A DNA stretch of 64,000 nucleotides from a virus (lineage: Duplodnaviria; Caudoviricetes): IMG/VR virus record IMGVR_UViG_3300021255_000136, positions 17,434 to 81,433 of that record. One strand, 5' to 3'. Below are positions 14,272 to 40,773 of the stretch, one piece after another; the first letter of the stretch is position 1, and the number at the start of each line of letters is the position of its first letter. Both the position numbers and the translations under genes were made by a program. The notes under the pieces were generated by a model. It did not search any database. It was given only the letters and a program-made list of their open reading frames with translations, and was not told the origin of the DNA.

Positions 14272-14315
14272 AAAAAAAGATACCCCCTACTACATTTCTG
14301 TAGTAGGGGGTTTTG
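14272..14315. terminator. bidirectional intrinsic terminator between the convergent arms
   Basis: CCCCCTACTAC-ATTTCT-GTAGTAGGGGG with an A-run before and a T-run after. Confidence 0.85.
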
Positions 14316-14319: not shown

Positions 14320-17300
14320 TTATTTGCGACGGTTGTTCGTGATCTTTTCGTAGTCCGACCAGTGCATGTTGTAGTCGAGTTTTCTTCCGTTAGAGGAGGT
14401 GGCTCTTGAAGAACTGCTCTGGGCGGGTGTCGTGGTGGAACTCGCCTGGGTATTGGGCGGGATCACAAACGGAGTGGTCTGGGTGCCGGATGTTCCGAGA
14501 TCTCTGGTGAAGTCCAGAGGCTGGCTCATCCAGCGGTTGAAGCCCCAGTTCGGATCTGCCTTATTGGCGCGATCCTGTTCGTCAGAAACCTTCCTGACGA
14601 TGCCGAAGTCACGAGCCGTCTGGTTACCGGATGTGGACATACCGGACTTGTGCAGGCTTCCTTCGAATGCGGATGCGATCCTGTCGATCATAGCCACTTC
14701 CTGATCATCAGTAAGATACTTGGAAGTGAACGCATCGAAGTTCTGCTCCATGTAGTCCATGTATGCTTCAACACGGTGTGCGCGTTCAACATAGCTGAGA
14801 GTGTTGTTCTTTACACTTGTACCGACTTTGCTGGTGTAGCGCTGTTGCAGGAGATCGAACTGCTCCTCTCTCGTCAGCTTGTCGTTGAACAGCATGGAGA
14901 AGAACACATCGTTGCGGCTTGCTGTAACGTCGCGCTTATCTTCATAAGGTATGCTGTTATCGATAAGCCACCTTGCGTACTTCCCTTCCTCAAGCTTGGC
15001 TACAGCATTGTCTAGATCACGGAGAGCACCGGCCTGTTCGTTGAAGGACAGAGCCTTGAATTCGGCGCTGTTCATCATCTGGATAGCTACATCGATGAAT
15101 CGCTCCTGTTCATGTCTTGCTTCTGTGTTCTTCTGGTCTGTACTGAGTACCATCTTGTGCCCGATCTGATCCGGGTTGTCAATGCTGGACGCGCCAGTCA
15201 TCTTCCCGGCCATCCACCTGACCTGCTCTTCAACAGTAGAGAAGTTGTCCAGCGCGATCTGGTATGCCTCGGTCCACTTGTATCCGGCCTTTACATCCGC
15301 CAGCGCTTCGACTGCGTACTCATCAGCGTCGTCTTCGATGAAGAAGTCTCCATCCTCTCCGGCCTGATCAGCGGTCATAGTGAACTGCGTCTTCACCTGC
15401 CCGGTTGCAGACAGATTTCGTGCGAAGGCTTCTTCGACCTTAGATGCTGTCGCATTGAATCGGGCTGCTACTATGGCTTCCCTATCTTCCTCGGTCTCTG
15501 CCAGACGGTAGGCGCTGGAGTTCAGGGTTTCCGCATACTCCTTATCCCATGCAGCAGCGAATTCCTTATCGAGGTCTCGCTTCTGTGCATCGGTGAGGTT
15601 AATGACGAAGCCCTTCTTGTCCGGGTTGTCGATCTTGCTCGGTACAGCATAACTGTCAGCGAGGTAAGCAGCCTGCTCTGCAACAGTTCCGTCCATGTTG
15701 ATCGCGACATTGAACTTCTCCTTACCAGCCTGGGATGCTCTGCCAACTTCCATAGCCCTGCTGGAGTTGTCCAGTATCTCGCTGTACCTCTCCTTCGTAG
15801 TCTCACGAGCTCTGTTGTAGGCGTCGTTGATAAGATATCCGCGCTCACGATCATCGGCCTCAGCATAGTCCTGGCTGTTCTCCAGCTTACGCATCTCTGC
15901 TCTGATCTCTTCGTTGAAGATGTCCCGCATCGCCGCCTTGTCCTCATCGGTTATCTCATAGACATACCCGACGTTGCCAACACTGGAGAGCTCTCTCGGA
16001 GGAGCGAACTCTGCTGACACCATGTCAGCTATCTGCTCGGTAGTAAGGCTCGGAGTTACGGCCAACAGCTGGAACAGATCGTCATTGGAGTAGGCATTGG
16101 GCAGGTTGTACTTCGTGGTGATGTAGTCTGCCGCACCAACCTTCAGTGCTGTCTGCTTGGTCATATCCAGTGCGTAGTGATCAGATACCGTGTGCCGTCC
16201 GAAGTCTTTAGCGATATCGAACGCCTGCTGCATCATAGCCAGCTTCCCTGCGTCGTCTGCCTGGATGTACACCGGATCGGTCATAACCTCGAAGCAGATC
16301 TGGTACGCAGCGCTACCGGCTACTTTCATCAGCTGTTCGAATTCTTCAGCCGTGAGATCCTTCAGCCCCTCATCCGTTTTGAAGCTCTTGGACAGTTGTT
16401 TCGGGATTATGCTGTTATCTCCGGTGGCCTCGTACAGTCTCATGAGCTCTGCGTCTACCGGAGTCTCGTTGATCACGTTGGCATAACCAGGCGACAGGAA
16501 GTTCTCCAGTGCTCTGAGGAACCAGCTGTCATTAGTATCCGTACGGCCCCACGCATCGACATATGCCATCTTCTGACTTGCCCAGCCGGGTACCTTGCTC
16601 TGGATCGAGTTCTGAACGAACCGCTGCAGAGCTCCGGGCATCGGGCTGTTCTTATCCGTATAGGTCGCCCTTCTATCCGGGTCTGCCGTTCTGGCGATCT
16701 GGCCGAAGAATGTAGGCATACCCTGGGCGAAGTAGCTCGTGGTCATTGCCGCCAGCAAAGCGGAGATACCGTTGACATCAGAGCTGTAGGCCAGTGAGGA
16801 CAGCGTGTTCTCGAAACCATCCAGCATGGACATTGCCAGCATAGGATCCGCAATACCCATCAGTGCTGTCCACAGATTGGACGGGGTACTGAGATCAACC
16901 TGGCCGCTGACGAGATTATAGATAGTCGCGCCTACGAACAGCGGCATCGACATCGGTGCCATCCAGTCCATAGTGTAGCTAACTTTCTTCCCGTCTACTG
17001 TAAACTCCACTGCCCAGTTCTGATGGCCTTGGAGTTTTTTCATCTTATCCTTATCATCGTCTCCGGTCCCGCCACCACGGAGTAATCCTGCGGAGGCAAG
17101 TAATGCACCGAGGATCATGACGCCGGTACCGGTAAGTCCAGCTGCCATGTTGTCAAGGATCTGCATGGTGTTGCCGTCGCCATTCTTCAGTGCCGCCTTC
17201 AGGTCAACCAGGGACTTGATGAATCCGGGGAGTGAATACTTAGCTGCGCCCAGTACGAGGATGTTGGCCGGGGTGCTGACGAACGGTAACAGTCCTTCCA

Positions 17301-20300
17301 TCAGTACGTTGCCAATAGGTCCGGATGTACTCTTGAACCGGTTCAGTGCCATAGCGAAGGTGTTCAGCTCATGGTAGGTATCACGCTGGGCCTGCATCGT
17401 CGCGTACTGTCTGGCCTTGTTTAGCATCTCTCTGCCTTCTCTGGTGTTGAAGATCGTCGGTTCTTCAGAGTTCTCTTCGCCTACTTCCATAGCCTTCAGG
17501 AGATCTTCTTCAGATACGCCCTGAGCCTGTAGTGCTTCTGCCAGTGCTCTGACATAGTAGCGCTTCTGGAATGCGAAGTCAGATTTCTCCAGGAACTCGC
17601 CATTCTTCTTCGACAGTTTGTCAAGTGGAGCCCAGCCGAAGATGTCGCGCTTGTTCAGGATATCACTGATGTCGTTGAACTTGTTGCCAGTACGCTTGCC
17701 TGCTACGACGTCTTGCATAGTTGCGTAGTCGCGCTGTGCAAACCGGACATAGGTGTTGTCGGACTCTTTGCCAAACAAGCCTACCCAACCGGTAAGTTCA
17801 GCACCGGGTACGTGCATCTTGTACTCGGGGTCAATAATGCCGGGGATCTGTTCAAGACGTCGCAGGATAAGATCTTTCATGAACACTGCGGGCATGAAAG
17901 CTGCATTACCAACGAAGTTCCTTATGTGGGTTCTCGGATTGCCTAGCATCGCCAGATATCTCCAAGCGTTCCACTTATCCATGATCGTTGCGGGGATCTG
18001 GTCAGCAATATCTTTCTTGATCAGTTCCATGATATCGCTGATCTCCTGACGGCTTGTTGCGGCCATCAGTCTCTCTGCCAGTTCCTGGTTCAGAGTGATA
18101 CGCTGCATCTTGTTCTTCGGGTTTTCTATCCTCTTTGCATACGTTGCATTCAGGTGGTTGATAACACCGTTGATGTAGTAGAGCTGGCCTTGCGGTGTCG
18201 CCTTCTTAATAATCGACATCGCCTGTACAGCCTGACCTAAGTTGGTACCCAGGATAGACAGATCGGCTGCTACCTTGACTGCCTTATCATAGGTGTTAGG
18301 ATCAGAGCTGAATTCCTGGATGAGGAGTTCTGCCAGTGCGATCCACTCAGCTCTCGGCAGTTCACCACTCTCGACCATTGCGCTGAATGTGTTCATTGCC
18401 TGATCGAAGTTGCCGTTGAAGCGATTTGAAAGAATGCTACGCGCCAGTCGGATAGACCTTGCGTTGGACTGAGGGGTATATCCCAGCAGCTCATTTGTCA
18501 TACCTTCATACAGCATGCGCTCGGTGAGGTGTTCGTTCTCGACGTTTGCCGCTACGGTCTGCATGTGCTTCCGCACAGCGGTGTTGTCAGCGGACTTCTT
18601 CGGGAGATGTACATCATCCTTCTTGTCGCCTCTACCTTTCGGGAGCTTGCCGTACTTCTTTATAGCGGAGTCGATTGCTTTGTGGAGTTGTTCCTTCTTC
18701 TCCTCGGTCAGGTCGTCGGCGTAGTCAACTACACCCTTCAACCGTTCAAAGCTGTCGGCCAGAGCCTGTGGTCCGTTCCGGTTGACATACTCGTTAACGA
18801 TGTCCTCCAGCTTGAACGGGTCGTTCTGGTTGGCGTTGAGCAGGTAGTTGTACTCGAAGGAGTTGATCGGGAACGTGTCCAGTGTGGTGATCTGCTGGCC
18901 GCTAGCGTTGCGGAAAGTGAAGGTCTGGTCTCCTGTTGCGTTCTCCCTCATCGGGTTCTCGAAGCCAACGGAGAATTGTTTGCTTACACCTTCCTGCGCT
19001 TCACTCTGCGGTTGACTCTGTTCATACAGTTCTCCATTGTCTCCTGTGCGTCGAGATGTTCCTTCTTGATCCTGCGCAGGAACTTCTTCCGTTCCTCGTC
19101 GTAAGCCAGCATCCTGTTCACGGAGACGATATCCAGTATCGACATCCCGATTTGCAGGAGGTATTGTATAAGGTTGCGTTGTGGTTCGGTCAGTACTGTT
19201 GGCATTGTTCATCGCCTCCAAATAATTGATGTATTGTGCTTCGGGGGAATCTCCTCCTACGTTCTCCATGACCACCGTCTCACCAGAGTCGAGCTGGTAG
19301 TATGCGGTATCGTCGGAGTAGTACAGGTTCGGAGAAAGTTCGGACTGAGTAAGGTCTGTTGGGTTGGTGTTGGAGATTTCAACTTCATCGCCGAATGCGT
19401 CGTAGGCAGCATTGGGGTCGATGGAGAGGGAATAGCTACCAGCAACCCCCCAGGAATTTACGGTATTGAAAATTGCGTCTCTGGAGTACTTCGGCGCATT
19501 TCTCCGCCTACGTTCGGCTCCCCATTCCAATCTGCTTTGAACATCTCTGGCCTCGATTTCTCCGGCTGTATTCCTATAGAGATCGTAGTCGGAGTCATTT
19601 TTGTGAGACCGGTTCCTGCTCTGGGAAAGATCGTAGTTACTCAAGAAGTCTGCTACTTCGCCGAGACCATACTCGCCTATCGCCCACAGGAGCTCTTTCT
19701 GATAGTCCTCGCGCTTTTTCTCATAGTATAGCTGGCCATTCTTCTGGAAATCCTGCAGCGTCAGATGAAGCATTTCGTTGCGGGTTTCTGCCATAGCATA
19801 GAGCCGATTCAAGCCATCTGCTGGGATGTACAGTTTCATGGCTTCTAAGGCTTTCTTTGCACGGTCCTTCGGTGTGTACGGCACTCGTTTCCCGTTTACG
19901 TCGATCTGGTCGTCCCAGGCTTCGAGATTTGAACCGCTCGCAAATCCTTCCATATACTGGATAGCGTGCTGTATTTCATGCATCAATGTACTGCGTACGT
20001 CTCTCTCGGCCTCTGATAAATACCCGACGAGGTCATCAAGAGCAATTGTGATCGTGAAGCTGGAGGGATCAAATTCGCCGCGTACATTACTCGGCATTTC
20101 TGTGAAAACAACGGTATAGTTTTTAAGGTCAGGATAGTTAGCAAATAACATCCCGGCGTTTCTTAAAACTTCTGGGAGCTTATACTCGGACCTGTAGTTT
20201 TCTGCGTTACCAAGAGAACTTTGTATAGCCGCGTTCCATTCCTGATCAAGTACAGCAGGACGTATGGTAAAGTCCTTATCATAGATCTCCCACTTCCATT

Positions 20301-29300: not shown

Positions 29301-32300
29301 AAGTCCTGCGCCCGATCTTTATCTGACGACCGGCCACATCCTTTGCACTCTGCGGTATAGACGCCTGATAGGAAGCTATCCTGGTCTGCGGGTCCAGACG
29401 AGGTGCTGGCTGTGCCGCCTTGGACTCAGTCTTCGTCGTGGTCTTGGAGGACTGTACACGCGGTGCTCTATTCTCTGTAGCCGCACCTGGCATTGAAGTA
29501 TTAGCCGGAGGGATAACGTCCATACGGAATGCTTCGATATTCGGGTTGTTCGTACCACCAAGCTGAGCCTGTTGTCTTGCCTGCATCAGCTGCGCAAGAT
29601 TGTCATTTGCATGAACGGGTGTAGGAGTAGGACCATAGGAGCCTTGTGTATACCCCATGGACCTGTTCATCTGTTGCTGGCCACGATACTCGCGTTCGTT
29701 GTTCTGGCTAATACCCGCGCTTCTGGCTTCCCGCTGTTCAATGTTGGCATTAGCAAGACGGAAGAATTTCCATGTGTTGTTCAGTACGTCGTTGATATCC
29801 CCGGTCTGGATAACCTTCAGGAGATCCTCAGACTGCTGGCCTACCGTATTAAGAATGTAGTTGTAGATCGCATTCCTCGTATTGTAGTCCTTCATGAAGT
29901 CTTGCGCTGCGAACTCCTGTATGCTCTTATAAGTAATACGAGCAGAACCTTTGAGTATTCCTTCTAGGAAAGACTGTACATCCGCTGCTGTACCTGCATC
30001 CAGACCATATTTGTCATGGAGCGTGGTACCGATATCCGAAAGAACAATACTATTCGGATTTTGAGTCTTGGCATAGAGGTACGCCATAGACTCCGTATTC
30101 TGTCTGGCCTCGTGGTCAAACTCGTTAACAGCGTTGAAGAACCAGTTCGGCATGGTTTTGAACATACCCTCGCCGTTCTCGAGGACAATAGCGTTGAACA
30201 TACCCGGATCGAACTCACGAACCATAAGAGCCAGCTTACCGATATCTCTTGCAATATCTCCGGTCTTGGCCGTGTTGTTGGCCTGTTGTTGCTCCAGATA
30301 CTTCAGTCGTGATGCGTCGTTCGGTCGGCTCTGGTTGTTCTTCATCCGCTCATAGATCTCTGCGATCTCGGCTTGGATTCTAGTACCGTTCTCAGCCACC
30401 GCCTGCATTCTACTGTTCCAGCGGTTACGGATGTCCTGAGCAAGTGATGTAATCTCTCTTGCCTGCTCGCCTTTGTCGAAACCTCTGTAGTCCGTCTCGC
30501 CGTTCCCTTCAGTCGGGCCCGGAGTAGGAGTACCTTCTGTGTGAGTTCGTGCAGTGGTTCCTTCTGTAGCGGTTTCTGTATCGGTGGTCGTGTCCTGCGG
30601 GTTCTGTACTCTAAGCGGCTCACCTTTCTGGGTATCGGCACTCGGTTCGCCATTCCGGGAAAGCTCGGTGCCGTCTACCGTAGACTGTTCCTGCTTGGTA
30701 TCTTTGCCCACAGAGTATTGCTTGCCATTGCTGCTATCGGCCATCGCTGCCCTGTAGTCTTTTAGATACTGGCGGGCATCGTTTCTCTCAGTTTCTGCCT
30801 GCTGGCGCATAGTTTCAAAGTTGCCCATCGCTTCATCTACAAAGCTCTTGGTCTCCGAGTGTTTATTGAGCTCGTGGAGTACAAAGTCTATGCCGTACCA
30901 TAGTGTGGCATAGTCGGTTTTTTCGCTTACTCCTTTTTTCCGGTTGCCCGCGTCACCGAGGTCAATAGTCGTCCCATCGCTGAAATTAATCCAAGCTTCG
31001 ACGGCTACATCTGTAGGCGCCTTCGTGGCCTTATCAAGTCCGCCATTAAAATATTTCTTACGCTGCTTGTCTATTTCTTCTCGCGAGAACCCAGATTCTG
31101 CGAGAGCACGAAGATCGTATGGGGAATCAACATGAATTACCGTGCCGTCGGCAAGAGTCCATTCGTAACCGAAGTTGTTCGAGTTAGTCCAGTGATCGAC
31201 GTCTTTGGCTTGGTCCATCATACTGAACAGTGCGAAAGCATCTTTAGCGTCATTAAGCCGCGTAAATTTATCGGATGCATTATACACATTATTCTGTGCT
31301 TCTTCTAGTCCCGCAATCCGTTCTGCTTTTGTCTTTCCGGTAAGATCAATTGGCTTCTTATCTTTACCGGGAGCAGACGCGTCTTCTTTGCCGCTATTCT
31401 GCTGATCGTCAAATTGTTCCTTCGTGGGGATTACAGGTGTAGCAGGCGCCTCGTTTTGTTGCTCCGCTTCGGCAACTTCCGGTGCCTGCTCTGTAATCGG
31501 ACTAGCAGGGGTCTGGTCTACTGATGCTGGCTCAACTGGGGCCGTGGCTTCTTCAGTCGTCGTTCCGGTTGTTTCACTTGTCGCGCCGGAGGTTACTGAC
31601 GGGGCATCACTAGTATGCGCGAGAAGGTACTGCATCGCGTCATTGTATTTGCCGCGTACGTCGTTAAGTTTATTCTGTAGTTTTTCAACCGCTGAATCAT
31701 ACCAGCCATTTAGAATATCGGCGACATCTTTATTTGCATTTCCTATCTTCTCAATGGTCTGATCTATTCCGTCTTCTTGTTTATAATTATAACTTGCGAC
31801 GTACTCTGCCTGAGATTTAAATGTCTGTGTCTTTCCCTTTGCCCCCGCATTGAAACCGGTGATTGTTCCGTCTCCGTTGTATATAAACGCTCTCGGGAAG
31901 AGATGATGTTTATCCCCGTCTGCGAATTCAATGTGGATGTTCTTTCCGTTTGCAAGCTGTTTTTCATAGGCCACGCCATTACCAAAGATTGTAGGTACCT
32001 TCTTACCCGTTCTTGCAATGGTAGAGAATATTGTCGCAGCTCTGCCATTCTGCTGCAGCTTCTCAAGCCTATCTTCAAGCCCTGTCTGTTCCTGATTCAG
32101 CTTGACAAGGTTGTCGTAGTTCTCGTTATATTTCTGCTGCTCTGGCGTTAGCTCTTCTTTTGTGACTTCGGGAGCGTTCTCCGATACTCCTTCTGCTTCA
32201 GAGCTTCCGTTCTTCACTTCAGCAGCAAGTCCAGCCTTAGCTGAACGGATCTGGTCAGCCATGTTCTTGATCGTACCAGTGAGCTCTATGCCGGTGATAG

Positions 32301-35300
32301 CTTTAAATGCATCACGCAGGCCTTGGTCTCTTGCGATCTCTCTGGCTTCCTTAATAGTAACAGAGTCCTGCTTCCTGTTGAGGATGGCCTTTACACGACT
32401 CTCTTCTTCAGTGTCGTCAGGAGATGACGGGAACTTACCGTTCTCATCAGCCTTTGCACGAGGTATAGCCAGAGGTTGCTGCTGTTCTGCTCTCTCTTCC
32501 CCGTGGCGATTCGGTGCTGGCCCTGTAGGTGTTGTGTTTGCGGGAGGAATAATTGCCGGTGCCTGATTCTCCTCGGGAGTACTACCTTCCTGTGCAACCG
32601 GTGCTGCAGGAGCAGCGGGTGTTGCATTCGCAGGAGGAATAACTGCCGGTGTCTCAGGTGCTGCAGGAGCCGCGTTTTCAACTGTAGTCGTCTCCGTATC
32701 ACCAGTGGTTTCTGACGGAGTATACCCAGCCTCTGCTGCGCGTTGTACAGCAGCAGCCACAGGTGTTACGGGAGACTCGGCAGCGTACTGCATCATCACC
32801 GGGTCTTTGGAATGGTCTAGAACAGAGTTGGTAAAATCTATACCAAGACCGCTTTTCAGCATATCGTTACCGATCTGCCTGTACGTTTGGTTGGTCTTGC
32901 CTTCTCTTACGGCATTACCGAAGCCCATCAGTGCACCACTGGCAAAACTGTCTGTTACAATGTCAGCGAGTTTTTTCTTTTCTTCCTGCTTCAGGATATA
33001 CTCGGCTTCTTCTGGAGTAATGTCAGATTCTTGAAGCAGTTCATTCTTTCTGGTGTGATACTCACTTCTCTCGCCTTCAATCCACTCCGCGATAGCATTT
33101 GTGAGTTTTTCTGTATTGAATTCTTCACTGGCCTCAACGAAGCCGGACGTAGACGTTTTTAATACGCCGTTAACTATATCGTTAAAGAGCCCGTTACTGG
33201 AGAGTTCAATATCCGGGATCTTATCGAATATGATATCAAGGGATACAGCTTCACTAAAGCCATCTGCAAAAGCACTGGCAAGAGCGTATTGGTTGGCTTT
33301 ATTTACATCTCCGGTACGTGCAAACGATTCTTGGAATGCATTTGCATAAGAAGCGCCGCCATAAGCCAGTGTCGTATACCCCCAGGAAATAGCTTTTGCT
33401 GCGGCTTCTGTAGCCAGCGCGGGAGCTGCAACCCCGGCAACTGATGCAAGAGCGCCAGCCATGCCAACAACGTATGTCGATTGCATAGCACTCTGTAAAG
33501 CTTTAGGCAATGTAGCCGCTGAAAGTGTAGTCTCACCGAAGAACGGGATATTAATATTTTTCTGCCAATGTTCTCCCAGTTCGCCATAAAGCCCGGCATT
33601 AACAGCGTCCATAAGTTCCATAACAGTTGGATTAGCATAAATCGGAACTTCGCCGGTACGTTTGGCCTCATTATAAAATCCGATTGAATCAGTTATGCCA
33701 AAGCCTAGAGCTGTTGGTATACCGGTGACAAATATTGAGCCCAGCAGATATGCCGCTCCAGCCGCATCGCCCCAGTTGCGCTTCCCGTCGAACAGATTAC
33801 CGGCCATTGCTGCGGAGAAGTCCTGTACCGCTTTGACTCTGGCCTCATGCGTTTCACCGTCATGGAGTCTGTTCTGGTCCTTTGCATACTCGAGAGCCGT
33901 CTGCAGCTCACCGTTGCCGATGTAGTAGGCATAGGTCTGTAACTCAGTATAAGACCACGTATCATTCGGGAGTACGTTGCCTACACCGAAACGCGCTATG
34001 TACTGTTCCGCTTCTTTCTTCTGAGTATCGGTCAGTCCAGGGATGACATCCAACAAGCCAGTTACGCCCTTTAGTTGCTGCTGGTATGCCTGCTGCGCGT
34101 TTGGATTGATAGTATCTTGATCGATCCTCTTAGATCCGCGAATAGCCATAGCCAAGTCAGCGAATCGTTCACCGGCTTTTACTTTATCCTGATAATTCTT
34201 ATCACGCTGGATATCTACGCCATAAACCCCGTGGCCTTGTTCGTCCACGCCGACCTGTACCTGAATACCACGGAAAGATTTCTGATAGCCAAGCTCTTCG
34301 TTCTTCTGGTCGATGGCCTTCTGATACTCTGGATGTGCTGCGTCAAAATTTGTCCAGAGCGTATTGAGAGTGGACTCGTTACCGGATTCCCACCAACTCG
34401 AGTTAGGCTTATTTCCGTTGCCAAGAAGATAGTTAGCGTACTCTGTTATAGACTGGTTCAGTCTGGCGTCGTATTGTCCGGACGCCGCAGTATCAAGCAG
34501 ATAGTTTGCAAAAGCCTGTTCTCTTTCACCAACCAGCCCGCGATTACCGGAAGCGTATTCCGGATAGGCTTTAAAGAAGTCCATGTCCAGCTGTTCCTGG
34601 AACCGACTATTAAGCCCCTTAGCATTTCCAAGTCCGTGCTCCTCTTTCCATTGCTCAGAGAAGTCGGTGTAATCCGCGTTCCAGTCATCCATGCTGTAGC
34701 CGAGTTCTGCTTTTGTCTGGGCAATTATATTCTCCAGACCACGGCCAGAGTTGTCGCTGATAAGGCCTATTGCCGAGTTGTAATAGTCACGGGCCTTCTG
34801 AGTTTGTAATTCATTCTGGAAGAACTTAGCTCTCTTGGTCTGCTCGTCTGTCAGCTTAGTATCGTCTTGAGAAGAACTATATTTCTTTTTCTCTTCCAGA
34901 ACTGCTTTCTGCTGAGCAATCAGATCGTTATAGAGCTTTACGTTCTCGTCATTCGGATCTAGGACATCATCTATCTGACTATCCAACGCAACGATCTGCT
35001 CGTCAAGTTCGTTATACTGTCGCGTCCAGTATGACTCATACAGGGTGTCGCTGATTTCGTTCTGAAGCTTATCTCTCGCAATGCGGGACTCGGTGAGCGT
35101 GTCGTATTTACCGAAATACTCTCCGGTTTCACGATAATGTTTGGCTGCTTCTGAACGGGACAAGTACTGCCATTCGCCGTTCTCGTCTTTAACCATAGCC
35201 GGGACGTTGACATATTGCCCGTCGTCATAGACCATGTACGCATCGAAAGCATCTTCCAGCTCGATATCGTCGTCTTCCTTGTCCGGTCCGAAACCGACAA

Positions 35301-37611
35301 AGCGTTCATGAAGATTTATGTTGCCATCGCCGTAGACGACGCCCATTCCGTTCTCCATGGCATTGTAATCCGCTACCTGCCGCTGGAGATAATCCGCATA
35401 TTCCTGCGCAGCTGTCTCCGGATTAGCCGCATAGAGATCGGCCTTCACCTTATTGAGTTCTGCATCCCACAGCTGTGTGTTTGCATAGTCCAGTGCTTTC
35501 TGTAGGAATGCCGGATCGGATTCATCACCGAAGGCTTTTCCGTAACGACGGGTTGCATCCTGCAGTTGATCGCTTGCATCATTCCTCGCCGTTCTTGCTT
35601 CGCCTAATGCCTTCTGTGCTTCGTTCGACGCTGTTATGGAAGCTTCATACTGCTCCCACAGTACATTATAATCATCAACCATCTGCTTGGTGATCTGCCA
35701 CTGCTGGAGACTGTTGAACTTCTCATTCTCTGCTATTATCTTTTCTTCGAGCTCCTTATAGGCAGTGTACTTGGCGTCGGCATCTGCTTCTAAGGTATCG
35801 TATGCCGTAGCCGCAGTATCGTATCTTACCTGGGCTTCATCAAGAAGTTTCTCTGCAGCGGTATCGTGGTAGTAGTGTGCCTGGTCCTGCTCGATCTGGA
35901 ATGCATACATTTCTGCGGAAGACTCGCTATCAAACTTGCCAAGCTGTTCGCCTGTAGCCTTGTAGTGGTCCTCTGCTTCCTTTTGGGATACATGCTTCCA
36001 CTCCCCATCTACTTCGATCACAGTGGGGATAAGCACGTACTGATCGCCATCCTGGATAACTACAGAGTCTACAGTAGAGTACGTGCCGTCGACATTCGTC
36101 AGTACAGGGCGGGCGTTAAGATCTATGTTACCGCCAGCCGTACCGTAGTCAGCTTCTGTTGATGCAGGAGTGAAGTACCCAAGAGCAGACTGCAAAGACT
36201 CTACAGTAGCCTGCCAATCTTCTACCGTTTCGTTACCAAGGAATGCAGCCTTGATCTTTCTGTCATTATTCAGATTCGTTGCAGTATTCAGGTCGTTGGT
36301 GTACTGCTCCTCAATACGTTTCCGCTCTGCAACAGCCTCATCAAGATCAGCCTTTGCTTCTTTCTCAGCGTCCAGTACGCCGAAGTCATACTCCGCGCCG
36401 CTGTTCCTATAATTATCTGCGTCGAGATGCGCCTTGTCATATGCGGCCTGTGCCTTATCTACAGCATCGTTAGCGGTCTTTATGTCCGCCTGATACTGAG
36501 TAGTAAGCGGAGTCGTATCGATCATGTCGTACTGCCGCATTTCATTGTCGTATGCAACGAGAGCATTGAACAGGCCTTGAATACTAGGCCAGTTTTTGTC
36601 AGGATCGCCTTGGGCCAGCTTCTGGATATCCTCAAGAGTATACCCGGCTTCTTCAGCGCCCTTCATTTCGTCCGTGCCCCACTTGGACCCGAATTCATTT
36701 GCATCCGCTAGAACATTAGCCGCCCACTTAATAACTTCTTCGCGCTTCTCAGGAGTGTTGTATTTGTCGCCCTCATTGACAATGAAGTCAATAACAGCAT
36801 TAACCTGAGGCGTCATAGCGTCCTGCCATTTTTCGATACCAGTTTTCCCGCCTGGGTCGTTGGTATAGTTCCGGACATCGCCTTCAAGAACTTCGTCCTC
36901 TCCGGTAGGCATTATCCAGTAGTTAGGATCACTCTCTGGGGGGAAAGACCTGCCGCCATTCTGGAAGTACTTCTCATATCTGGCCTGCTCTGCGGCATTA
37001 GCCTGAGCAATCTGGTCGGCTTCTTTCTTCTTTTCTTCGGAGAAAGTATCACCGTCCATATTCGCCACGACGTTCTTGAGCCAGTCGGGCCAGGTATCCA
37101 TACCTTCCATGATCTTCTCGCCGTTCGACTCCGTGGCTTTCTCGGTCTGAGATTCAGTGGCCTTCTCCCCTGCGTGGCTGGCAGCTTCAGTATTCTTGGT
37201 CTCTTCTGGCTGCGTTACAGTATTATCCTCAGTCTCTTCCTGGATTGGAGTTTCTGGAGCAGACGTCTCGGTATTGGAAACCTCTGATCCGTCCCCATCG
37301 TAAGAGTCATCGATAGGATTAGTATTAGAAGGGGTATCTGTTTCCCATGAATAATTATCGCTATCATTCGAACCGTTATCACTTGGGAAAAGAGTCTCCG
37401 GCGCATTAGATGGGTCATAAGAATTCGTAATCGGATTAATCTTATCCGTACTGTTATAATCCGCAGTTGGGGTATACGAGTCCGCCCGGTCCATTGCGTC
37501 GTAGTCTATATCATACGACTTCGTCTCAGGAGTTGGAGTTACGGAAGGTACTGATATATTATGGTTACCAAAATCTTTTTCTTTACCTAGTTCATCTTTT
37601 ACTAGCGCCAT
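14320..37611 (-). CDS. giant (7763 aa) polyvalent virion/ejection protein: two ART-PolyVal-like, two HExxH metallopeptidase, LPD23-like, RelE/PBECR-like and Gp88-like modules and a helical C-terminal region
   Basis: Uninterrupted 23.3-kb ORF with AGGAG RBS. Motifs LWHGS...LYANLKNP...GYDGVIF and AFHGT...VYLKMEN...GYDSI; HEISH (28009-28023); HEIQH (19966-19980); TGWFRGVDGKWKWEI; WRYLAMLGNPRTHIRN. It is the last gene of the virion operon. Confidence 0.9.
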   Translation of the reverse strand: MALVKDELGKEKDFGNHNISVPSVTPTPETKSYDIDYDAMDRADSYTPTADYNSTDKINPITNSYDPSNAPETLFPSDNGSNDSDNYSWETDTPSNTNPIDDSYDGDGSEVSNTETSAPETPIQEETEDNTVTQPEETKNTEAASHAGEKATESQTEKATESNGEKIMEGMDTWPDWLKNVVANMDGDTFSEEKKKEADQIAQANAAEQARYEKYFQNGGRSFPPESDPNYWIMPTGEDEVLEGDVRNYTNDPGGKTGIEKWQDAMTPQVNAVIDFIVNEGDKYNTPEKREEVIKWAANVLADANEFGSKWGTDEMKGAEEAGYTLEDIQKLAQGDPDKNWPSIQGLFNALVAYDNEMRQYDMIDTTPLTTQYQADIKTANDAVDKAQAAYDKAHLDADNYRNSGAEYDFGVLDAEKEAKADLDEAVAERKRIEEQYTNDLNTATNLNNDRKIKAAFLGNETVEDWQATVESLQSALGYFTPASTEADYGTAGGNIDLNARPVLTNVDGTYSTVDSVVIQDGDQYVLIPTVIEVDGEWKHVSQKEAEDHYKATGEQLGKFDSESSAEMYAFQIEQDQAHYYHDTAAEKLLDEAQVRYDTAATAYDTLEADADAKYTAYKELEEKIIAENEKFNSLQQWQITKQMVDDYNVLWEQYEASITASNEAQKALGEARTARNDASDQLQDATRRYGKAFGDESDPAFLQKALDYANTQLWDAELNKVKADLYAANPETAAQEYADYLQRQVADYNAMENGMGVVYGDGNINLHERFVGFGPDKEDDDIELEDAFDAYMVYDDGQYVNVPAMVKDENGEWQYLSRSEAAKHYRETGEYFGKYDTLTESRIARDKLQNEISDTLYESYWTRQYNELDEQIVALDSQIDDVLDPNDENVKLYNDLIAQQKAVLEEKKKYSSSQDDTKLTDEQTKRAKFFQNELQTQKARDYYNSAIGLISDNSGRGLENIIAQTKAELGYSMDDWNADYTDFSEQWKEEHGLGNAKGLNSRFQEQLDMDFFKAYPEYASGNRGLVGEREQAFANYLLDTAASGQYDARLNQSITEYANYLLGNGNKPNSSWWESGNESTLNTLWTNFDAAHPEYQKAIDQKNEELGYQKSFRGIQVQVGVDEQGHGVYGVDIQRDKNYQDKVKAGERFADLAMAIRGSKRIDQDTINPNAQQAYQQQLKGVTGLLDVIPGLTDTQKKEAEQYIARFGVGNVLPNDTWSYTELQTYAYYIGNGELQTALEYAKDQNRLHDGETHEARVKAVQDFSAAMAGNLFDGKRNWGDAAGAAYLLGSIFVTGIPTALGFGITDSIGFYNEAKRTGEVPIYANPTVMELMDAVNAGLYGELGEHWQKNINIPFFGETTLSAATLPKALQSAMQSTYVVGMAGALASVAGVAAPALATEAAAKAISWGYTTLAYGGASYANAFQESFARTGDVNKANQYALASAFADGFSEAVSLDIIFDKIPDIELSSNGLFNDIVNGVLKTSTSGFVEASEEFNTEKLTNAIAEWIEGERSEYHTRKNELLQESDITPEEAEYILKQEEKKKLADIVTDSFASGALMGFGNAVREGKTNQTYRQIGNDMLKSGLGIDFTNSVLDHSKDPVMMQYAAESPVTPVAAAVQRAAEAGYTPSETTGDTETTTVENAAPAAPETPAVIPPANATPAAPAAPVAQEGSTPEENQAPAIIPPANTTPTGPAPNRHGEERAEQQQPLAIPRAKADENGKFPSSPDDTEEESRVKAILNRKQDSVTIKEAREIARDQGLRDAFKAITGIELTGTIKNMADQIRSAKAGLAAEVKNGSSEAEGVSENAPEVTKEELTPEQQKYNENYDNLVKLNQEQTGLEDRLEKLQQNGRAATIFSTIARTGKKVPTIFGNGVAYEKQLANGKNIHIEFADGDKHHLFPRAFIYNGDGTITGFNAGAKGKTQTFKSQAEYVASYNYKQEDGIDQTIEKIGNANKDVADILNGWYDSAVEKLQNKLNDVRGKYNDAMQYLLAHTSDAPSVTSGATSETTGTTTEEATAPVEPASVDQTPASPITEQAPEVAEAEQQNEAPATPVIPTKEQFDDQQNSGKEDASAPGKDKKPIDLTGKTKAERIAGLEEAQNNVYNASDKFTRLNDAKDAFALFSMMDQAKDVDHWTNSNNFGYEWTLADGTVIHVDSPYDLRALAESGFSREEIDKQRKKYFNGGLDKATKAPTDVAVEAWINFSDGTTIDLGDAGNRKKGVSEKTDYATLWYGIDFVLHELNKHSETKSFVDEAMGNFETMRQQAETERNDARQYLKDYRAAMADSSNGKQYSVGKDTKQEQSTVDGTELSRNGEPSADTQKGEPLRVQNPQDTTTDTETATEGTTARTHTEGTPTPGPTEGNGETDYRGFDKGEQAREITSLAQDIRNRWNSRMQAVAENGTRIQAEIAEIYERMKNNQSRPNDASRLKYLEQQQANNTAKTGDIARDIGKLALMVREFDPGMFNAIVLENGEGMFKTMPNWFFNAVNEFDHEARQNTESMAYLYAKTQNPNSIVLSDIGTTLHDKYGLDAGTAADVQSFLEGILKGSARITYKSIQEFAAQDFMKDYNTRNAIYNYILNTVGQQSEDLLKVIQTGDINDVLNNTWKFFRLANANIEQREARSAGISQNNEREYRGQQQMNRSMGYTQGSYGPTPTPVHANDNLAQLMQARQQAQLGGTNNPNIEAFRMDVIPPANTSMPGAATENRAPRVQSSKTTTKTESKAAQPAPRLDPQTRIASYQASIPQSAKDVAGRQIKIGRRTYNVYSYYNMRHAQNSNVTLDVAAKEFKLILDGAGQNAAINWVAKTEGTDTGAAVVKKGDKADTTEKPKNPKEQKVKNLDEELEKKLGAREVHPRSWEDKVRLNPSFPWKTRREFVESEVSKGKSAEEAHLQFDMMMDRAANDTFGTMEVEYGITVTKPDRTASNKTAEKAKSTKSEPKKSTSKKSAPKTQTAPQPFRVPNVGATVESTQREIASLTSERDRIYNDPKGNAERLQEVERKLAAAQEDLATLQSRHGGTDNDIRPNDSTPAERSVNPDDSGAAGTVSAGQVGSAESEAQNSGGGEGISGAEESSDGRDLRGRRVNATLLDLSGEKKRDTIEYNHGFVVYDSFSDDESVLTNEERSAVRRAQSAGVERVFFVDADGLYSLIRDENGKVINRTPFDGVVFNNHGMDTMIINVNRDIKNAHHEISHEMLKKLNDAERSKYLKKAIGAIFKGKKSLFDRLYDYYSGLYKDAYANKSPEEFEQAVLNEMYADLVNGIDRMSWMHGVSLIQSDMPTYQRLAQKFELDNKLVEYATSEAAQTQDYSDFVKGKQYSLSQPVTMDGDNVAEDNQGASLSRGQLEYFKGSRVRDNLGRLLKLWHGSITHATQNIFDPQWAADHLSFFAVDDPRIAGSYSGTMREVNPMREMTEVPGIEEMDDNELGDFLAKRAEEETGYSDGYGRVFVENELYDNVENLYTLAHSLDTLMALAPYSKDFLNAAQRIRNLMEAAAGDADNYFEGVIEQAKIARDHLPEIAEIAPSLKRFIDKIMNQLEEELDNFEYLYDELYDAYENNESVFEFDGEMVSREDAIELAQQFAPPTVEDFTTRGNRPLYANLKNPYIYDAEGGIWSRLSDKDGIRAYLERIGNPKQQENFLFREDIPGTMTTNGVVNWAHAHGYDGVIFRNIEDVGGKDDGTLDGTLATIVVGFESNQFKDPDNKNPTNDPDFRFSISSAQDWYENATEDERKVEMASIRTFGITSNYRHGGYIIPQGQMLNFSGSHELRPQDRQTYEKFQENRTVDHREIANVYKSVGIDVGTNMQDKGMVEFMRQGNIRMQPEAPGVHLFKTTAPTTEQLATIEKYIEWAQQNRRVHGSDTFMVDIMDDNGNNAESKTFKLGQSADDITDEIAYYYEHGSFKRKYVSPFAMFFSLSVDDWKDSTRSSTVKVVDAATEIFGTTPYFCYGGYITPYGDMLDFSGIDQQMDSLLAMGEPAEEVEEMRTWMKNNPNGMRTGGATHSTVEKAYKQSGVKLLPDNNNYRSDFIERGNVRIAAEGPAIEASAGAELTDVQCEKLLDYIKWVFSHKDWPGSSQWAKDPKLTVEINGGYGTTFYDFSTSPESIVMDIKEKAASPKKNYVSNLSMFFSLSSGASEIETNGDSANKLYSLSTWNASDYVTDREKAITALVEQLGVTYEQAEKWVDDVNSVAKMIAEDKGRLDYKDTGKSPFVSNAEYGGSFDFTTLCKKRRLLTGTFSAIQNALPNTVLTPFDVLSIRAMMDDAGLEVSCGKCYVEGSRATMGIFTKEFLKLYEKYHPGEWVPNMAQMNTPDGIEWVRQNHPEVYEEYEYFWNHYGTLRKGDKNLFASQQKPKLYQMRSAYKGEIRQHFEDADMIREKNRNGGIRMQSFSDFEIVHLIDAMQVITDMSRVGLQGQAYTKVPDFAWALGDTGLKINLSIDAWSVDENGKLVFNNKEGMNFDTAMELRNAYPRNVGTICCVYDDAQLLAALADDRIDFIIPFHRSQWKKAQYKAMGLPATTKDYTYQQNEKWLNPKEHTHKWQGRDVPTKCTNYMPNEYWDFSKSGKENAEKYLGMCARDGKRPKFYKFLTDNKDGSYSLKEDGSTDGYWKLLIDFKMYDNNGNGSPQLPVRPIFNMDQVNRMLNSYDENPNVFPVAHGIVDKFVAQYKEQHPGMQYSLSKSDQQYMDAVKSDDMETAQAMVEKAAKKAGYKKEAFHGTQSFGFNEFRMISANELGVHFGTRAAAEAFYNNLYNNLGDNPGIYDVYLKMENTLRTPDVWGDPMALKNMMDDVDDWIEDGYIPRRAVNTKWTKANSKKLKEALVRNEAYDQYEADAQRWQDALYNEGEFEGAAVTDDDLDDLGRIANLSAQKYLLGLGYDSIRYINEMEDAGNESYIMLNAENIKRADAVTYDDDGNIIPLSQRFDDSNRDMRFSVAKNVVDVNGQTYDEVVYMDTDLKSRYFRNAEFNNFVMNNFAGMEIGTVSDYGVPETIVFADAKDKDVSKHGNAHHPLTELTYGRGRNRTTRMVYLNAPEVVQISKFEGYSEQDTDPRENHQWMDRNGFEYRKAYVMDRQNIYPVILSIAQADDGRSILYHAMMQKNNAVGVAFQPTSRNNPNIDFNGENQDWFARHPIASNNSIPQDGEGVNKQYSISAGMTEDERYEELKDRTITAVVDTKSQDYAEELSELEAESIAKSRAEKVIYPLAEKLGILNRALSSPEVEIEFLFSKNGGLRESLHKQLRTGGTYLDFAKALINIDDLLNSAVLIEAHTDKYAGTKRESRNLIDTKVLLSVFKDENSLVPVQFEIKNTSNDGGKLYMTVALAKIKADVTGRTEESKTPASALVSATYSIADIFKNVNPQDGHFLKYIPNQFLDDEQIAAKNEAVDEDNRRIDRYKTSEQRDMDPMYSIAVSDPDTLNFLNDQLENGDVVYTYKSFLEYEDENGDPYLIAPMAGVQKDETGKKSQSHALRPGVWEESVGNPNSKSLGKKVNDKTGEVSWTYGLEKSDVDGSVVPAAYNPYQHSSDVVLNDQFSIAYKRPNLVTYMCAIPKSELTSGYHFGVTDPEKATRSDGDIVTAKDAVGMHDWKSGSLASQLENTQRHVYLSRWLMPVRKLSNIEVAQQYKEILDREAPGLGVPFNVVPSGLLSALQEVGVPIDLTGTGLSEANYRKYLSEVNAAREEAGLEPFPYSYQTKAERDAAKKERKSAQAVRDEVDRIEKRFSLAGPAAKGADLGKLESAEQREIAGYSRDEIWKDTGWFRGVDGKWKWEIYDKDFTIRPAVLDQEWNAAIQSSLGNAENYRSEYKLPEVLRNAGMLFANYPDLKNYTVVFTEMPSNVRGEFDPSSFTITIALDDLVGYLSEAERDVRSTLMHEIQHAIQYMEGFASGSNLEAWDDQIDVNGKRVPYTPKDRAKKALEAMKLYIPADGLNRLYAMAETRNEMLHLTLQDFQKNGQLYYEKKREDYQKELLWAIGEYGLGEVADFLSNYDLSQSRNRSHKNDSDYDLYRNTAGEIEARDVQSRLEWGAERRRRNAPKYSRDAIFNTVNSWGVAGSYSLSIDPNAAYDAFGDEVEISNTNPTDLTQSELSPNLYYSDDTAYYQLDSGETVVMENVGGDSPEAQYINYLEAMNNANSTDRTTTQPYTIPPANRDVDTGYRLREQDAGLRRGTEEVPAQDQEGTSRRTGDNGELYEQSQPQSEAQEGVSKQFSVGFENPMRENATGDQTFTFRNASGQQITTLDTFPINSFEYNYLLNANQNDPFKLEDIVNEYVNRNGPQALADSFERLKGVVDYADDLTEEKKEQLHKAIDSAIKKYGKLPKGRGDKKDDVHLPKKSADNTAVRKHMQTVAANVENEHLTERMLYEGMTNELLGYTPQSNARSIRLARSILSNRFNGNFDQAMNTFSAMVESGELPRAEWIALAELLIQEFSSDPNTYDKAVKVAADLSILGTNLGQAVQAMSIIKKATPQGQLYYINGVINHLNATYAKRIENPKNKMQRITLNQELAERLMAATSRQEISDIMELIKKDIADQIPATIMDKWNAWRYLAMLGNPRTHIRNFVGNAAFMPAVFMKDLILRRLEQIPGIIDPEYKMHVPGAELTGWVGLFGKESDNTYVRFAQRDYATMQDVVAGKRTGNKFNDISDILNKRDIFGWAPLDKLSKKNGEFLEKSDFAFQKRYYVRALAEALQAQGVSEEDLLKAMEVGEENSEEPTIFNTREGREMLNKARQYATMQAQRDTYHELNTFAMALNRFKSTSGPIGNVLMEGLLPFVSTPANILVLGAAKYSLPGFIKSLVDLKAALKNGDGNTMQILDNMAAGLTGTGVMILGALLASAGLLRGGGTGDDDKDKMKKLQGHQNWAVEFTVDGKKVSYTMDWMAPMSMPLFVGATIYNLVSGQVDLSTPSNLWTALMGIADPMLAMSMLDGFENTLSSLAYSSDVNGISALLAAMTTSYFAQGMPTFFGQIARTADPDRRATYTDKNSPMPGALQRFVQNSIQSKVPGWASQKMAYVDAWGRTDTNDSWFLRALENFLSPGYANVINETPVDAELMRLYEATGDNSIIPKQLSKSFKTDEGLKDLTAEEFEQLMKVAGSAAYQICFEVMTDPVYIQADDAGKLAMMQQAFDIAKDFGRHTVSDHYALDMTKQTALKVGAADYITTKYNLPNAYSNDDLFQLLAVTPSLTTEQIADMVSAEFAPPRELSSVGNVGYVYEITDEDKAAMRDIFNEEIRAEMRKLENSQDYAEADDRERGYLINDAYNRARETTKERYSEILDNSSRAMEVGRASQAGKEKFNVAINMDGTVAEQAAYLADSYAVPSKIDNPDKKGFVINLTDAQKRDLDKEFAAAWDKEYAETLNSSAYRLAETEEDREAIVAARFNATASKVEEAFARNLSATGQVKTQFTMTADQAGEDGDFFIEDDADEYAVEALADVKAGYKWTEAYQIALDNFSTVEEQVRWMAGKMTGASSIDNPDQIGHKMVLSTDQKNTEARHEQERFIDVAIQMMNSAEFKALSFNEQAGALRDLDNAVAKLEEGKYARWLIDNSIPYEDKRDVTASRNDVFFSMLFNDKLTREEQFDLLQQRYTSKVGTSVKNNTLSYVERAHRVEAYMDYMEQNFDAFTSKYLTDDQEVAMIDRIASAFEGSLHKSGMSTSGNQTARDFGIVRKVSDEQDRANKADPNWGFNRWMSQPLDFTRDLGTSGTQTTPFVIPPNTQASSTTTPAQSSSSRATSSNGRKLDYNMHWSDYEKITNNRRK
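18984..19205 (-). CDS. 73-aa gene nested in the +1 frame of the giant gene
   Basis: GGAGG 9 nt before ATG; amphipathic protein-like sequence; the host frame here is a low-complexity linker. Confidence 0.55.
   Translation of the reverse strand: MPTVLTEPQRNLIQYLLQIGMSILDIVSVNRMLAYDEERKKFLRRIKKEHLDAQETMENCMNRVNRRVKRRKV
28335..28526 (-). CDS. 63-aa gene nested in the +1 frame of the giant gene
   Basis: GGAGG 8 nt before ATG 28526 (MIFDRMIVRLPNG...); the host frame here is a G/S/D/R-rich linker. Confidence 0.55.
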   Translation of the reverse strand: MIFDRMIVRLPNGASIPMTQEQLELYQQGKWDPLNPKPRTAEEEKEYQGRKKALMDEIFGDDE

Positions 37612-37630
37612 TACGCATTATCTCCTTTTA

Positions 37631-39788: not shown

Positions 39789-40070
39789 TTACTGTATAAT
39801 CTCATCGCTGTAATCCCCATACTGTACCTCCCCATTACCGTAATAGTAATTGTATTCTTTCGGGGAGCCGTCTGCGAAACCTTCACCGATGATATATGCG
39901 ATGATCATACCGCCAGCCATAATCATAGCGGTAATTCGCTCAGTTGTGCCGGAGCTTCCACCTGCAAGTACAAGGATGTTCGCGATAAAACCGGCAACAG
40001 CCATCCAGAATTTACGGGAGGTAAATTTTCTTGCAAGGTTCTTTTTCATTTCTTCATTCATAGTTACCAT
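39789..40070 (-). CDS. holin
   Basis: SRKFWMAVAG...IIAYIIGEGFADG: two TM helices, SRKFW-type holin signature, next to the endolysin. Confidence 0.75.
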   Translation of the reverse strand: MVTMNEEMKKNLARKFTSRKFWMAVAGFIANILVLAGGSSGTTERITAMIMAGGMIIAYIIGEGFADGSPKEYNYYYGNGEVQYGDYSDEIIQ

Positions 40071-40164
40071 CCTCCTTACGGTTTCCTGTGATGGTCCTCA
40101 TTACTCACAATACATGCGTAAGTAACGAAGAGAACAAAAACAATAAAAGCCAATGTGTTTTCCA

Positions 40165-40596: not shown

Positions 40597-40599
40597 CGA

Positions 40600-40773
40600 T
40601 CACCCTTTCTGAGTAAAATCTATATCACAGCTGTCAACCCCGCAGGTGTGATCCTTTTTATTGAGCCCCAGCTTCGGCTCATGTTCACAGCACCAGCAGA
40701 GATCTTTCCCTGCCGGTACCGTCTGTCCGCATTTTCTGCACTTCGGCAGATCATTCTCCATCTTCTCTGTCAT
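40600..40773 (-). CDS. small Cys-rich protein (start uncertain)
   Basis: CRKCG...CWCCEH in the 3' part of the 40600..40872 ORF. Confidence 0.45.
   Translation of the reverse strand: MTEKMENDLPKCRKCGQTVPAGKDLCWCCEHEPKLGLNKKDHTCGVDSCDIDFTQKG

Follow-up and report, generated by a model that had tools for sequence, protein, structure and literature searches.

A probable ejection protein of 7763 residues: an exceptionally large polyvalent protein encoded by an uncultured podovirus-like phage

Introduction

What use might a phage have for a single protein of 7763 amino acids (aa)? The question is raised by a 64,000-nucleotide stretch of a viral genome (IMG/VR record IMGVR_UViG_3300021255_000136, positions 17434-81433 of the record; hereafter the window), in which one gene on the minus strand, at 14320-37611, encodes a protein of 868 kDa. 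Our analysis places this giant, which is exceptionally large but of a kind already known, among the phage-type polyvalent proteins defined by Iyer et al. (PMC5512222), and indicates that it is probably a hypertrophied internal virion (ejection) protein encoded by a temperate, podovirus-like phage. We infer its packaging and ejection from the position of its gene, from a fold match between its C-terminal domain (CTD) and annotated internal virion proteins, from an N-terminal domain shared with an epsilon15-like DNA-transfer protein, and from a cassette relative that has been verified in virions (gp60 of Pseudomonas phage H66). A protein of 868 kDa whose gene takes up 28.6% of the genome puts to the test the amount of protein that a short-tailed phage is able to package and pass through its tail.

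A single gene of 23.3 kb

Coordinates here and below are those of the window, and the giant gene and all features within it lie on the minus strand. The original prediction described one uninterrupted 23.3-kb open reading frame (ORF) occupying 36% of the window, and the ORF listing indeed contains a single ORF at 14320-37611, which opens with an ATG. About three of every 64 codons in random sequence are stops, so a run of 7763 stop-free codons is beyond chance. A Shine-Dalgarno sequence, AGGAG (37622-37626), lies 10 nt 5' of the ATG at 37611, and a bidirectional intrinsic terminator (14282-14311; 13-bp stem, with T runs on both strands) starts 9 nt 3' of the stop codon and closes the late operon. 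The share of the genome taken up by the gene can be given as 28.6% because the virus record, at 81,433 bp, is complete: it is classed as 100% complete and has direct terminal repeats (a 97-bp exact repeat). The encoded protein has a pI of 4.76, a net charge of about -400, a start that is not signal peptide-like and only 11 cysteines (Cys), of which residues 3954-4582 contain nine.

The ORF is real. Its metagenomic source and its extreme size could point to an artefact of assembly or annotation, such as a chimeric contig or several genes read as one, but this is exceedingly improbable given that no stop interrupts the 23.3 kb, that the identical protein has been recorded from two contigs, and that the genome is complete with terminal repeats. 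Furthermore, a syntenic IMG/VR genome has a collinear ORF of 5698 aa, and the same CTD is found in other giants, of 7010-7231 aa. The protein is the largest among the 170-odd relatives retrieved, the second having 7231 aa. A megablast search of GenBank phages with the giant gene and the structural block produced no match.

Layout of the chain

The layout of the giant, with a conserved delivery end, a hypervariable front and a string of cassettes, is unusually readable because a syntenic relative differs from it by whole cassettes. This relative is a 71-kb IMG/VR genome (G001) whose portal, tail and endolysin proteins are 88%, 70% and 80% identical to their counterparts here, and which encodes its 5698-aa homologue in the same gene slot. 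Residues 6048-7720 of the giant are 62% identical to that homologue, compared to only 26-31% for residues 183-3295. The middle is rearranged between the two proteins, and the ART, Cys-bearing and LPD23-zincin cassettes described below are absent from the relative. In other giants of 5108-7231 aa, the C-terminal part is held in common at 39-42% identity.

The mosaic middle noticed in the original prediction was borne out by BLAST among 173 collected relatives: residues 3300-6060 are made up of blocks that recur in different giants in different orders, and matches to different relatives mark out no fewer than 10 independent cassettes. The comparison of cassette content among related phages, which had been proposed as a check, revealed whole cassettes gained, lost and reordered. 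One such block, residues 5406-5731, has 94% identity to a segment of P0015, a giant of 6128 aa that is different in other respects; as the core genes are 70-88% identical to those of the nearest relative, this apparently reflects a recent cassette exchange. Neither an IMG/VR scan with residues 1-1200 nor tblastn with residues 3001-5500 produced a match.

Self-BLAST found no long-range internal repeats in the giant, and only two local domain duplications, a GNIDL-type pair (E 3e-14) and a tandem pair of ~200-aa domains (E 3e-16). A simple, repetitive tape-measure-like protein, the outcome that the original prediction had set against its own proposal, is thus not what the chain resembles. We rejected a tape measure protein based on the absence of long-range repeats, the P22-like portal, the podovirus-type gene content and the presence of a globular, enzyme-like module.

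A conserved C-terminal domain as candidate delivery module

The CTD (residues 6213-7280; 15772-18975) is conserved and mostly helical, and would represent the family-defining delivery or anchor module. Within it are a conserved, glycine-rich hydrophobic helix (residues 6815-6840; 17092-17169), which is a candidate membrane-inserting segment, and a second hydrophobic peak near residue 6769. The domain is followed by a clade-specific C-terminal extension (residues 7281-7763; 14323-15771) that is 39-62% identical in the closest giants. When residues 6504-7703 were used as the query of an exhaustive HMMER search, at least 5047 representative clusters were matched (2703 at E<=1e-30), with common domain bounds running from residues ~6210-6310 to ~7150-7280. 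The CTD was nearly always located at the very C-terminus (median of 94 residues after it) of proteins that were mostly 2-4.5 kaa (thousand amino acids) and up to 7 kaa in length; the short matches were contig-truncated fragments of long proteins. No Pfam family covered the CTD in the giant or in nine homologues, and tblastn did not find it in 50,697 GenBank phage records. A family of at least 5047 clusters that has no Pfam model is under-described, and its features would generalise to thousands of proteins of uncultured phages.

An AlphaFold2 model of the CTD based on 32 sequences was mostly helical (pLDDT 76.9, pTM 0.59). Its matches in BFVD were to the C-termini of polyvalent-domain proteins of uncultured phages (E 1e-54 to 1e-27) and to annotated "internal virion proteins" (E 6e-14 to 8e-10) from Pelagibacter phage EXVC018P and from the T7-like cyanophages S-CBP2, S-CBP3 and S-RIP1 of Synechococcus. 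Ejection proteins of the gp16 type have been described as helical and mosaic, with conserved membrane segments (PMC8954989). These data suggest that the CTD serves as a packaging and delivery module for which the remaining chain is the cargo.

A further link to DNA delivery comes from the other end of the chain. Residues 494-585 (35857-36132) form a domain, which we refer to as "GNIDL", that has similarity to a DNA transfer protein of epsilon15-like phages. Specifically, the identity is 43% between residues 494-581 of the giant and residues 61-145 of that 830-aa protein, which occupies the gp16 slot and is the product of the third gene of the ejection cluster. A second, diverged GNIDL-type domain (residues 738-852; 35056-35400) is 33% identical to the first. 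Both are set in an acidic, fast-evolving N-terminal region (residues 1-2298; 30718-37611) with a charge of about -190 that is 26-30% identical to the syntenic relative. A clade-conserved block follows (residues 2299-3324; 27640-30717), 31% identical to the relative.

Recognizable domains and cassettes

A Pfam search on 850-aa tiles of the protein identified ART-PolyVal (38.9 bits, cut-off 31.2) and LPD23 (66.7 bits, cut-off 27), in line with the proposal that the giant is a polyvalent protein. From the list of domains expected for such a protein, ART-PolyVal and LPD were therefore present, and MPTase-PolyVal and PBECR were not matched by their Pfam models. As had been anticipated for several of the cassettes, most of the chain resembles no family: ~95% of it has no sequence match in Pfam, NCBIfam or PDB. 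The NCBIfam scan returned nothing at E<=0.1, and PDB sequence searches with both halves of the protein and with the CTD profile returned only low-complexity noise in flanking columns. Profiles of MPTase-PolyVal and MuF_C had no match in the genome at E<=10. The profile of LPD38, the family of the nearest family-bearing Atlas cluster, did not match the genome either, although this negative is a weak one, in that none of the control genomes were matched.

The first candidate enzyme in the chain lies in the clade-conserved block. The sequence HEISH at residues 3197-3201 (28009-28023) is a candidate zincin-like peptidase, based on its HExxH being kept in 10 of 10 aligned relatives. The ART cassette (residues 3325-3720; 26452-27639), which was delimited by homology blocks, contains the ART-PolyVal match at residues 3603-3714 (26470-26805; Pfam E 1.8e-9, above the curated cut-off). 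Next are two tandem paralogous domains of ~200 aa (residues 3721-4134; 25210-26451) that are 26% identical to each other, and the Cys-bearing module (residues 4135-4681; 23569-25209), which was modelled as a radical-SAM-like partial barrel and is considered separately below. Two cassettes without an assigned function follow, one at residues 4682-4937 (22801-23568), found in at least 15 other giants, and one at residues 4938-5154 (22150-22800), delimited by homology blocks.

An AT-richer stretch at ~19.5-22.3 kb had also been pointed out, and GC there is 0.45-0.48 compared to ~0.51 in the rest of the gene. The minimum, 0.425, coincides with a cassette at residues 5155-5412 (21376-22149) that has a weak LPD3 match (residues 5224-5323; E 6.5e-4, below the Pfam cut-off). 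It is followed by a cassette with no assigned function (residues 5413-5726; 20434-21375), the one that is 94% identical to part of P0015. Next comes the LPD23-zincin cassette (residues 5727-6059; 19435-20433), in which LPD23 at residues 5728-5783 (E 1.5e-18) precedes a second candidate zincin, HEIQH, at residue 5878. Weak Pfam matches to DUF6782 and SprT (residues 5831-5898) surround this motif, and the cassette shares 37.5% identity with residues 2152-2326 of H66 gp60. Both HExxH motifs, at 3197 and 5878, are kept in every aligned relative.

A Cys-bearing, enzyme-like barrel

Three cysteines of the Cys-bearing module, C4234, C4277 and C4280, are invariant and form a C-x42-C-x2-C pattern, and several Asp, His and Lys residues are invariant too. 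The module occurs at 37-78% identity in 16 IMG/VR loci, always within proteins of 3-4 kaa, and in many of the collected giants (phage proteins of 3-4.6 kaa); a search for stand-alone copies found mostly fragments on short contigs. Its AlphaFold2 model was of high quality (pLDDT 87.4, pTM 0.86). Foldseek returned no match to the model at E<=0.001. In an exhaustive VIA search, 31 of the 32 top rows were radical SAM enzymes, led by spore photoproduct lyase (4fhc; Z 8.0, borderline by VIA calibration, with a root-mean-square deviation of 4.5 over 235 residues). PFL-AE and QueE each had a Z of 7.4. Scores of this order, the 8.0 included, can reflect nothing more than a common barrel. The CX3CX2C motif of radical SAM enzymes is absent from the module, and the Radical_SAM profile PF04055 had no match in the genome at E<=10, having matched 14 of 14 control genomes.

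A protein-language-model Atlas assigned the module instead to GP88 (feature score 0.94; 30 of 30 matches). The genome has a free-standing GP88 gene (PF17338) in its early region, at 61136-61978 on the plus strand (E 1.9e-19). The PF17338 profile matches that gene and not the Cys-bearing module, and hhalign between the two was not significant (probability 0.3%). Three short collinear motifs, CxxCY, R-x5-DF[DE] and YTKV, are common to both. A literature search on PF17338/GP88 found no papers. Overall, the model points to an enzyme-like barrel that is possibly metal- or cluster-binding, with membership of neither the radical SAM enzymes nor GP88 established. A barrel module as widespread as this is under-described, and what is learned of it would generalise to thousands of proteins of uncultured phages.

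A short motif at the cassette junctions

The boundaries between blocks share a short motif, [RKQ][YF]S[LIV], with which the cassettes begin and which falls where relatives have exchanged cassettes. The pattern [YF]S[LIV] occurs 18 times in the giant, compared to 6.2 +/- 2.4 times in shuffled sequences, and copies at residues 2299, 3325, 3721, 3921, 4135/4155, 4682, 4938, 5155, 5413, 5727, 6060 and 6213 coincide with block boundaries. When proximity was defined as a window of -20 to +10 around the motif, 32% of the starts of homology segments lay near a copy versus 11% at random (a value reached by 16 of 2000 permutations), as did 42% of their ends versus 12% at random (reached by 1 of 2000). 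The same motif is found in relatives at the starts of homologous cassettes, often after PT.DPD[IM]R, and across the family [RKQ][YF]S[LIVM] was counted 269 times, with 74 copies expected. The invariant serine of the motif is encoded by both AGY and TCN codons. DNA microhomology was ruled out as the cause of the motif on this basis, and selection therefore appears to act on the protein and not on the DNA. A junction motif under protein-level selection is under-described as well, and would similarly generalise to thousands of proteins of uncultured phages.

Since it is selected at the protein level, the motif is a candidate processing site, and we tentatively hypothesize that cleavage at the [YF]S[LIV] junctions takes place, which is plausible. 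An invariant serine after an aromatic residue is reminiscent of self-cleaving F/S sites. Processing of polyvalent proteins by their zincins was proposed by Iyer et al.; passages on cleavage and processing in that paper describe no junction motif, and the word "linker" does not occur in it (PMC5512222). If the junctions were cleavage sites, they would provide a simple rule for parsing such giants and mining them for anti-defence effectors.

It is also a serious possibility that the chain stays uncut, as in N4 virion RNA polymerase, and that the motif is the first structural element (an N-cap or first strand) of a frame common to the cassettes, kept because cassettes with such a start fold independently and recombine. 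The AlphaFold2 model of the Cys-bearing module places the motif (model residues 14-20) at the start of the first helix, as part of the fold, with pLDDT climbing from 61 to 85. One copy, at 4603, is inside a module and conserved there, and N4 virion RNA polymerase is packaged unprocessed according to Iyer et al. (PMC5512222). This explanation has to accommodate unrelated folds (the ART tail, LPD23, the barrel module and the CTD) that share the same four starting residues, an upstream context, PT.DPD[IM]R, that is conserved too, and the retention of two zincins in the same chain.

Proposed function and its alternatives

In the mechanism that we propose for an ejected polyvalent protein, the CTD (~1000 aa) would be the part that has the whole protein packed near the portal and afterwards brought through, or inserted across, the cell envelope together with the DNA. 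The cargo ahead of it would comprise the acidic, fast-evolving region of 3300 aa, with its two GNIDL domains and conserved zincin, and ~10 exchangeable cassettes that include ART-PolyVal, the paralogous domains, the radical-SAM-like/GP88-like barrel, LPD3, and LPD23 with the second zincin. Judging from the family to which the giant belongs, the cassettes may work on host targets within minutes of the start of infection, either to counter defences or to take over the cell. The junction motif would most likely function as a processing or boundary signal, with the chain cut into units by the embedded zincins or via the invariant serine.

A bolder version of this mechanism, which we regard as rather doubtful, is that of a self-processing polyprotein in which the two zincins or the invariant serine cut the junctions, so that one gene delivers a dozen separate effectors to the host. 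These would include a non-canonical iron-sulfur (Fe-S), radical-SAM-like enzyme, and small genes embedded in the +1 frame (described below) would encode chaperones or inhibitors that silence the chain in the producing cell. Were this true, the grammar of motif and CTD would hold for 5000 or more protein clusters from gut and rumen phages.

Several observations weigh against the giant being an ejected virion protein. Whether the protein is packaged, in how many copies, and whether it is ejected and cleaved are matters of inference for this uncultured phage. It is hard to picture a chain of 868 kDa fitting beside 81 kb of DNA, and an Fe-S enzyme would need to be refolded and reloaded after passage through the tail channel. 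The gene stands apart from those for head and tail, being separated from the tail fibre genes by the lysis cassette. The ART-PolyVal match covers only positions 55-139 of the 140-position profile, which is its C-terminal 60%. In the PDB, the CTD had no real match by sequence, Foldseek or VIA, T7 gp16 (PDB 7EYB) included, but generic helical ones only. The BFVD matches to internal virion proteins have TM scores of only 0.25-0.38, and the identity of those proteins comes from the annotations of others. Lastly, two hidden Markov models (HMMs) of the CTD, a rough one and a clean one built from 137 sequences, did not match H66 gp60, phi24B gp47 or the epsilon15-type (Bas106) ejection proteins.

Could the protein be packaged but be mainly structural, for instance an oversized ejectosome or internal core, or a scaffold that fills the capsid? 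Most of its mass would then go into a conduit across the envelope, or serve to set the pressure inside. Enzyme-like cassettes would be small in number or vestigial, or would have the cell wall as their target in place of cytoplasmic molecules. This would agree with the CTD fold matching internal virion proteins, with the GNIDL domain being common to a DNA transfer protein, and with the absence of an enzymatic signature from 95% of the chain, and a conduit role has been proposed for phi24B gp47 by those who studied it (bioRxiv 10.64898/2026.04.10.717836). However, it leaves unexplained why close relatives freely gain, lose and reorder cassettes, why a 94%-identical cassette is found in an otherwise different giant, and why the chain has ART-PolyVal, two conserved HExxH motifs and a confidently modelled barrel in which Cys, Asp and His residues are invariant. 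The syntenic relative, moreover, manages with 2000 fewer residues. We consider a mainly structural role improbable.

It is quite improbable, too, that the giant is never packaged and is instead a late multi-enzyme protein that is cytoplasmic or released, serving as a takeover factory, an exclusion factor or an anti-competitor toxin set free at lysis. A gene that comes after the lysis cassette and apart from the head and tail genes would suit such a protein, and the CTD HMM misses every proteomically verified giant on which it was tried. Yet the gene occupies the same slot, adjoining the lysis genes, as H66 gp59-gp60, where the product is a virion protein, and its CTD has the fold match to internal virion proteins. 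The very few cysteines and the lack of a signal peptide-like start also argue against this alternative, and proteins of the polyvalent family are characteristically delivered with the DNA (PMC5512222).

Comparison with known systems

The polyvalent proteins of Iyer et al. (PMC5512222) resemble the giant in several respects: they are very large multi-domain products of the late region with ART-PolyVal, LPD23, LPD3-like and zincin motifs, they show cassette mosaicism, and both co-delivery with DNA and possible self-processing were predicted for them. A zincin-like MPTase is their commonest hub domain. The examples given there are typically >2000 aa with 2-15 domains, compared to 7763 aa here. 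The giant differs from them in having no methylase-helicase dyad, and its zincins and CTD are not matched by the Pfam models of that work (MPTase-PolyVal, MuF_C, LPD38). The same dyad, of an N6-adenine methylase and an SF2 helicase, is the core of P1 DarB, an anti-restriction protein delivered from the capsid and the archetype that the original prediction had named. We rejected a DarB-like dyad in the giant, as the chain lacks Walker A and NPPY motifs and matches no methylase or helicase of Pfam; nor does it have an SNF2 signature, so that the SNF2/methylase module is absent as the original prediction had stated.

Among individual proteins, H66 gp60 is a useful comparison. It is an F116-like protein of 3787 aa annotated as a "PLxRFG domain-containing protein", with a GenBank note that it was verified as part of the virion by mass spectrometry. 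Both gp60 and the PLxRFG proteins of Klebsiella Lastavirus are, like the giant, podovirus giants that adjoin lysis genes and are preceded by a protein of ~700 aa. The gene for the 495-kDa PLxRFG protein of Lastavirus takes up 19% of its genome (PMC9505181). The giant is twice the size of gp60, and the LPD23-zincin cassette is the sole cassette the two share. Membership of the PLxRFG group itself was rejected, because P[LIVMF]x[RK][FYW]G, found at residue 3108 of gp60, does not occur in the chain.

T7 gp16/IVP-D and the DNA transfer protein of the epsilon15 type are likewise the products of the final, and longest, gene of the late block and are helical with hydrophobic segments (PMC8954989). 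Compared to this group, the giant is 6-12 times longer, with no similarity to T7 gp16 at the level of the PDB and no lytic transglycosylase found. The Stx phage phi24B, too, has a podovirus genome that ends with the gene for a large polyvalent protein, gp47 (2811 aa, with LPD5, LPD1, LPD38 and MuF-C). Virion proteomics detected gp47 in abundance, cryo-EM did not show it, and a role in ejection has been proposed for it (bioRxiv 10.64898/2026.04.10.717836). The giant has a different set of domains from gp47, and its CTD has no sequence relation to it. The virion RNA polymerase of phage N4, gp50 (~3500 aa), is also a giant that is packaged in the capsid, is ejected through a short tail and contains a zincin; the protein described here is more than twice its size. 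A virion RNA polymerase of the N4 or crAss-like type was rejected for the giant at the sequence level, as Pfam shows no RNA polymerase family at E<=1 and the chain has no DxDGD. The giant thus differs from H66 gp60, the Lastavirus proteins, phi24B gp47 and the N4 enzyme in its scale, in a CTD with no sequence link to theirs, and in its set of cargo.

Neighbouring genes and type of phage

Genes on the minus strand are in the order terminase large subunit, P22-like portal, capsid, tail, collagen-like fibres, lysis genes, a 695-aa gene and the giant; the giant does, as predicted, end the virion operon. The original prediction called the gene just upstream pilot-like, a label that found no support: the 695-aa protein (37631-39718, minus strand) matches no Pfam or PHROG family, and only its position, by which a gp15-like slot would be possible, speaks for the name. 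Neither it nor a 143-aa protein encoded upstream matched families of ejection proteins such as would form a gp14-gp15-gp16-like cluster with the giant, and an IMG/VR scan with the 695-aa protein produced no match. That H66 gp59 is also 695 aa long is a coincidence, as BLAST found no similarity between the two.

The lysis cassette (39789-42051, minus strand) separates the tail fibre genes from the pair formed by the 695-aa gene and the giant, much as in H66. Its members are an NlpC/P60-type endolysin-like gene with PG_binding_1, the 143-aa gene (phrog_37604) and a weakly holin-like gene of 93 aa. A tail fibre with collagen triple-helix repeats is encoded at 43067-45382 (minus strand). The fibre region is highly plastic too, since the counterpart in the syntenic relative is an ORF of 2291 aa. 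Matches to the major capsid protein are split over two minus-strand ORFs, 51562-52302 and 49889-50203 (region 49889-52302), both of which map onto one 383-aa ORF of the relative.

An integrase and a primase-helicase are encoded on the opposite strand. The former is a gene of the tyrosine-integrase family (6022-7125, plus strand; phrog_1, E 2e-65), and based on its presence the phage, which is podovirus-like, is probably temperate.

Genes embedded in the giant gene

Two small ORFs overlap the giant gene in its +1 frame. One of 73 aa (18984-19205) has its own ribosome-binding site (TTTGGAGG) and is 74% identical in the syntenic relative, with start and stop unchanged, over a stretch in which the giant frame is only 56% identical. 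Of the 49 nucleotide differences between the two genomes, 26 are at third positions of its own frame and only 7 at third positions of the giant frame. Because the substitution pattern follows its frame, this ORF is very probably a real overlapping gene. The other, of 63 aa (28335-28526), also has its own ribosome-binding site and lies just upstream of the HEISH zincin. In the relative, a 60-aa ORF in the +1 frame with a GAAGGAG ribosome-binding site is found in the same place, and its core is 52% identical, compared to ~31% for the giant frame.

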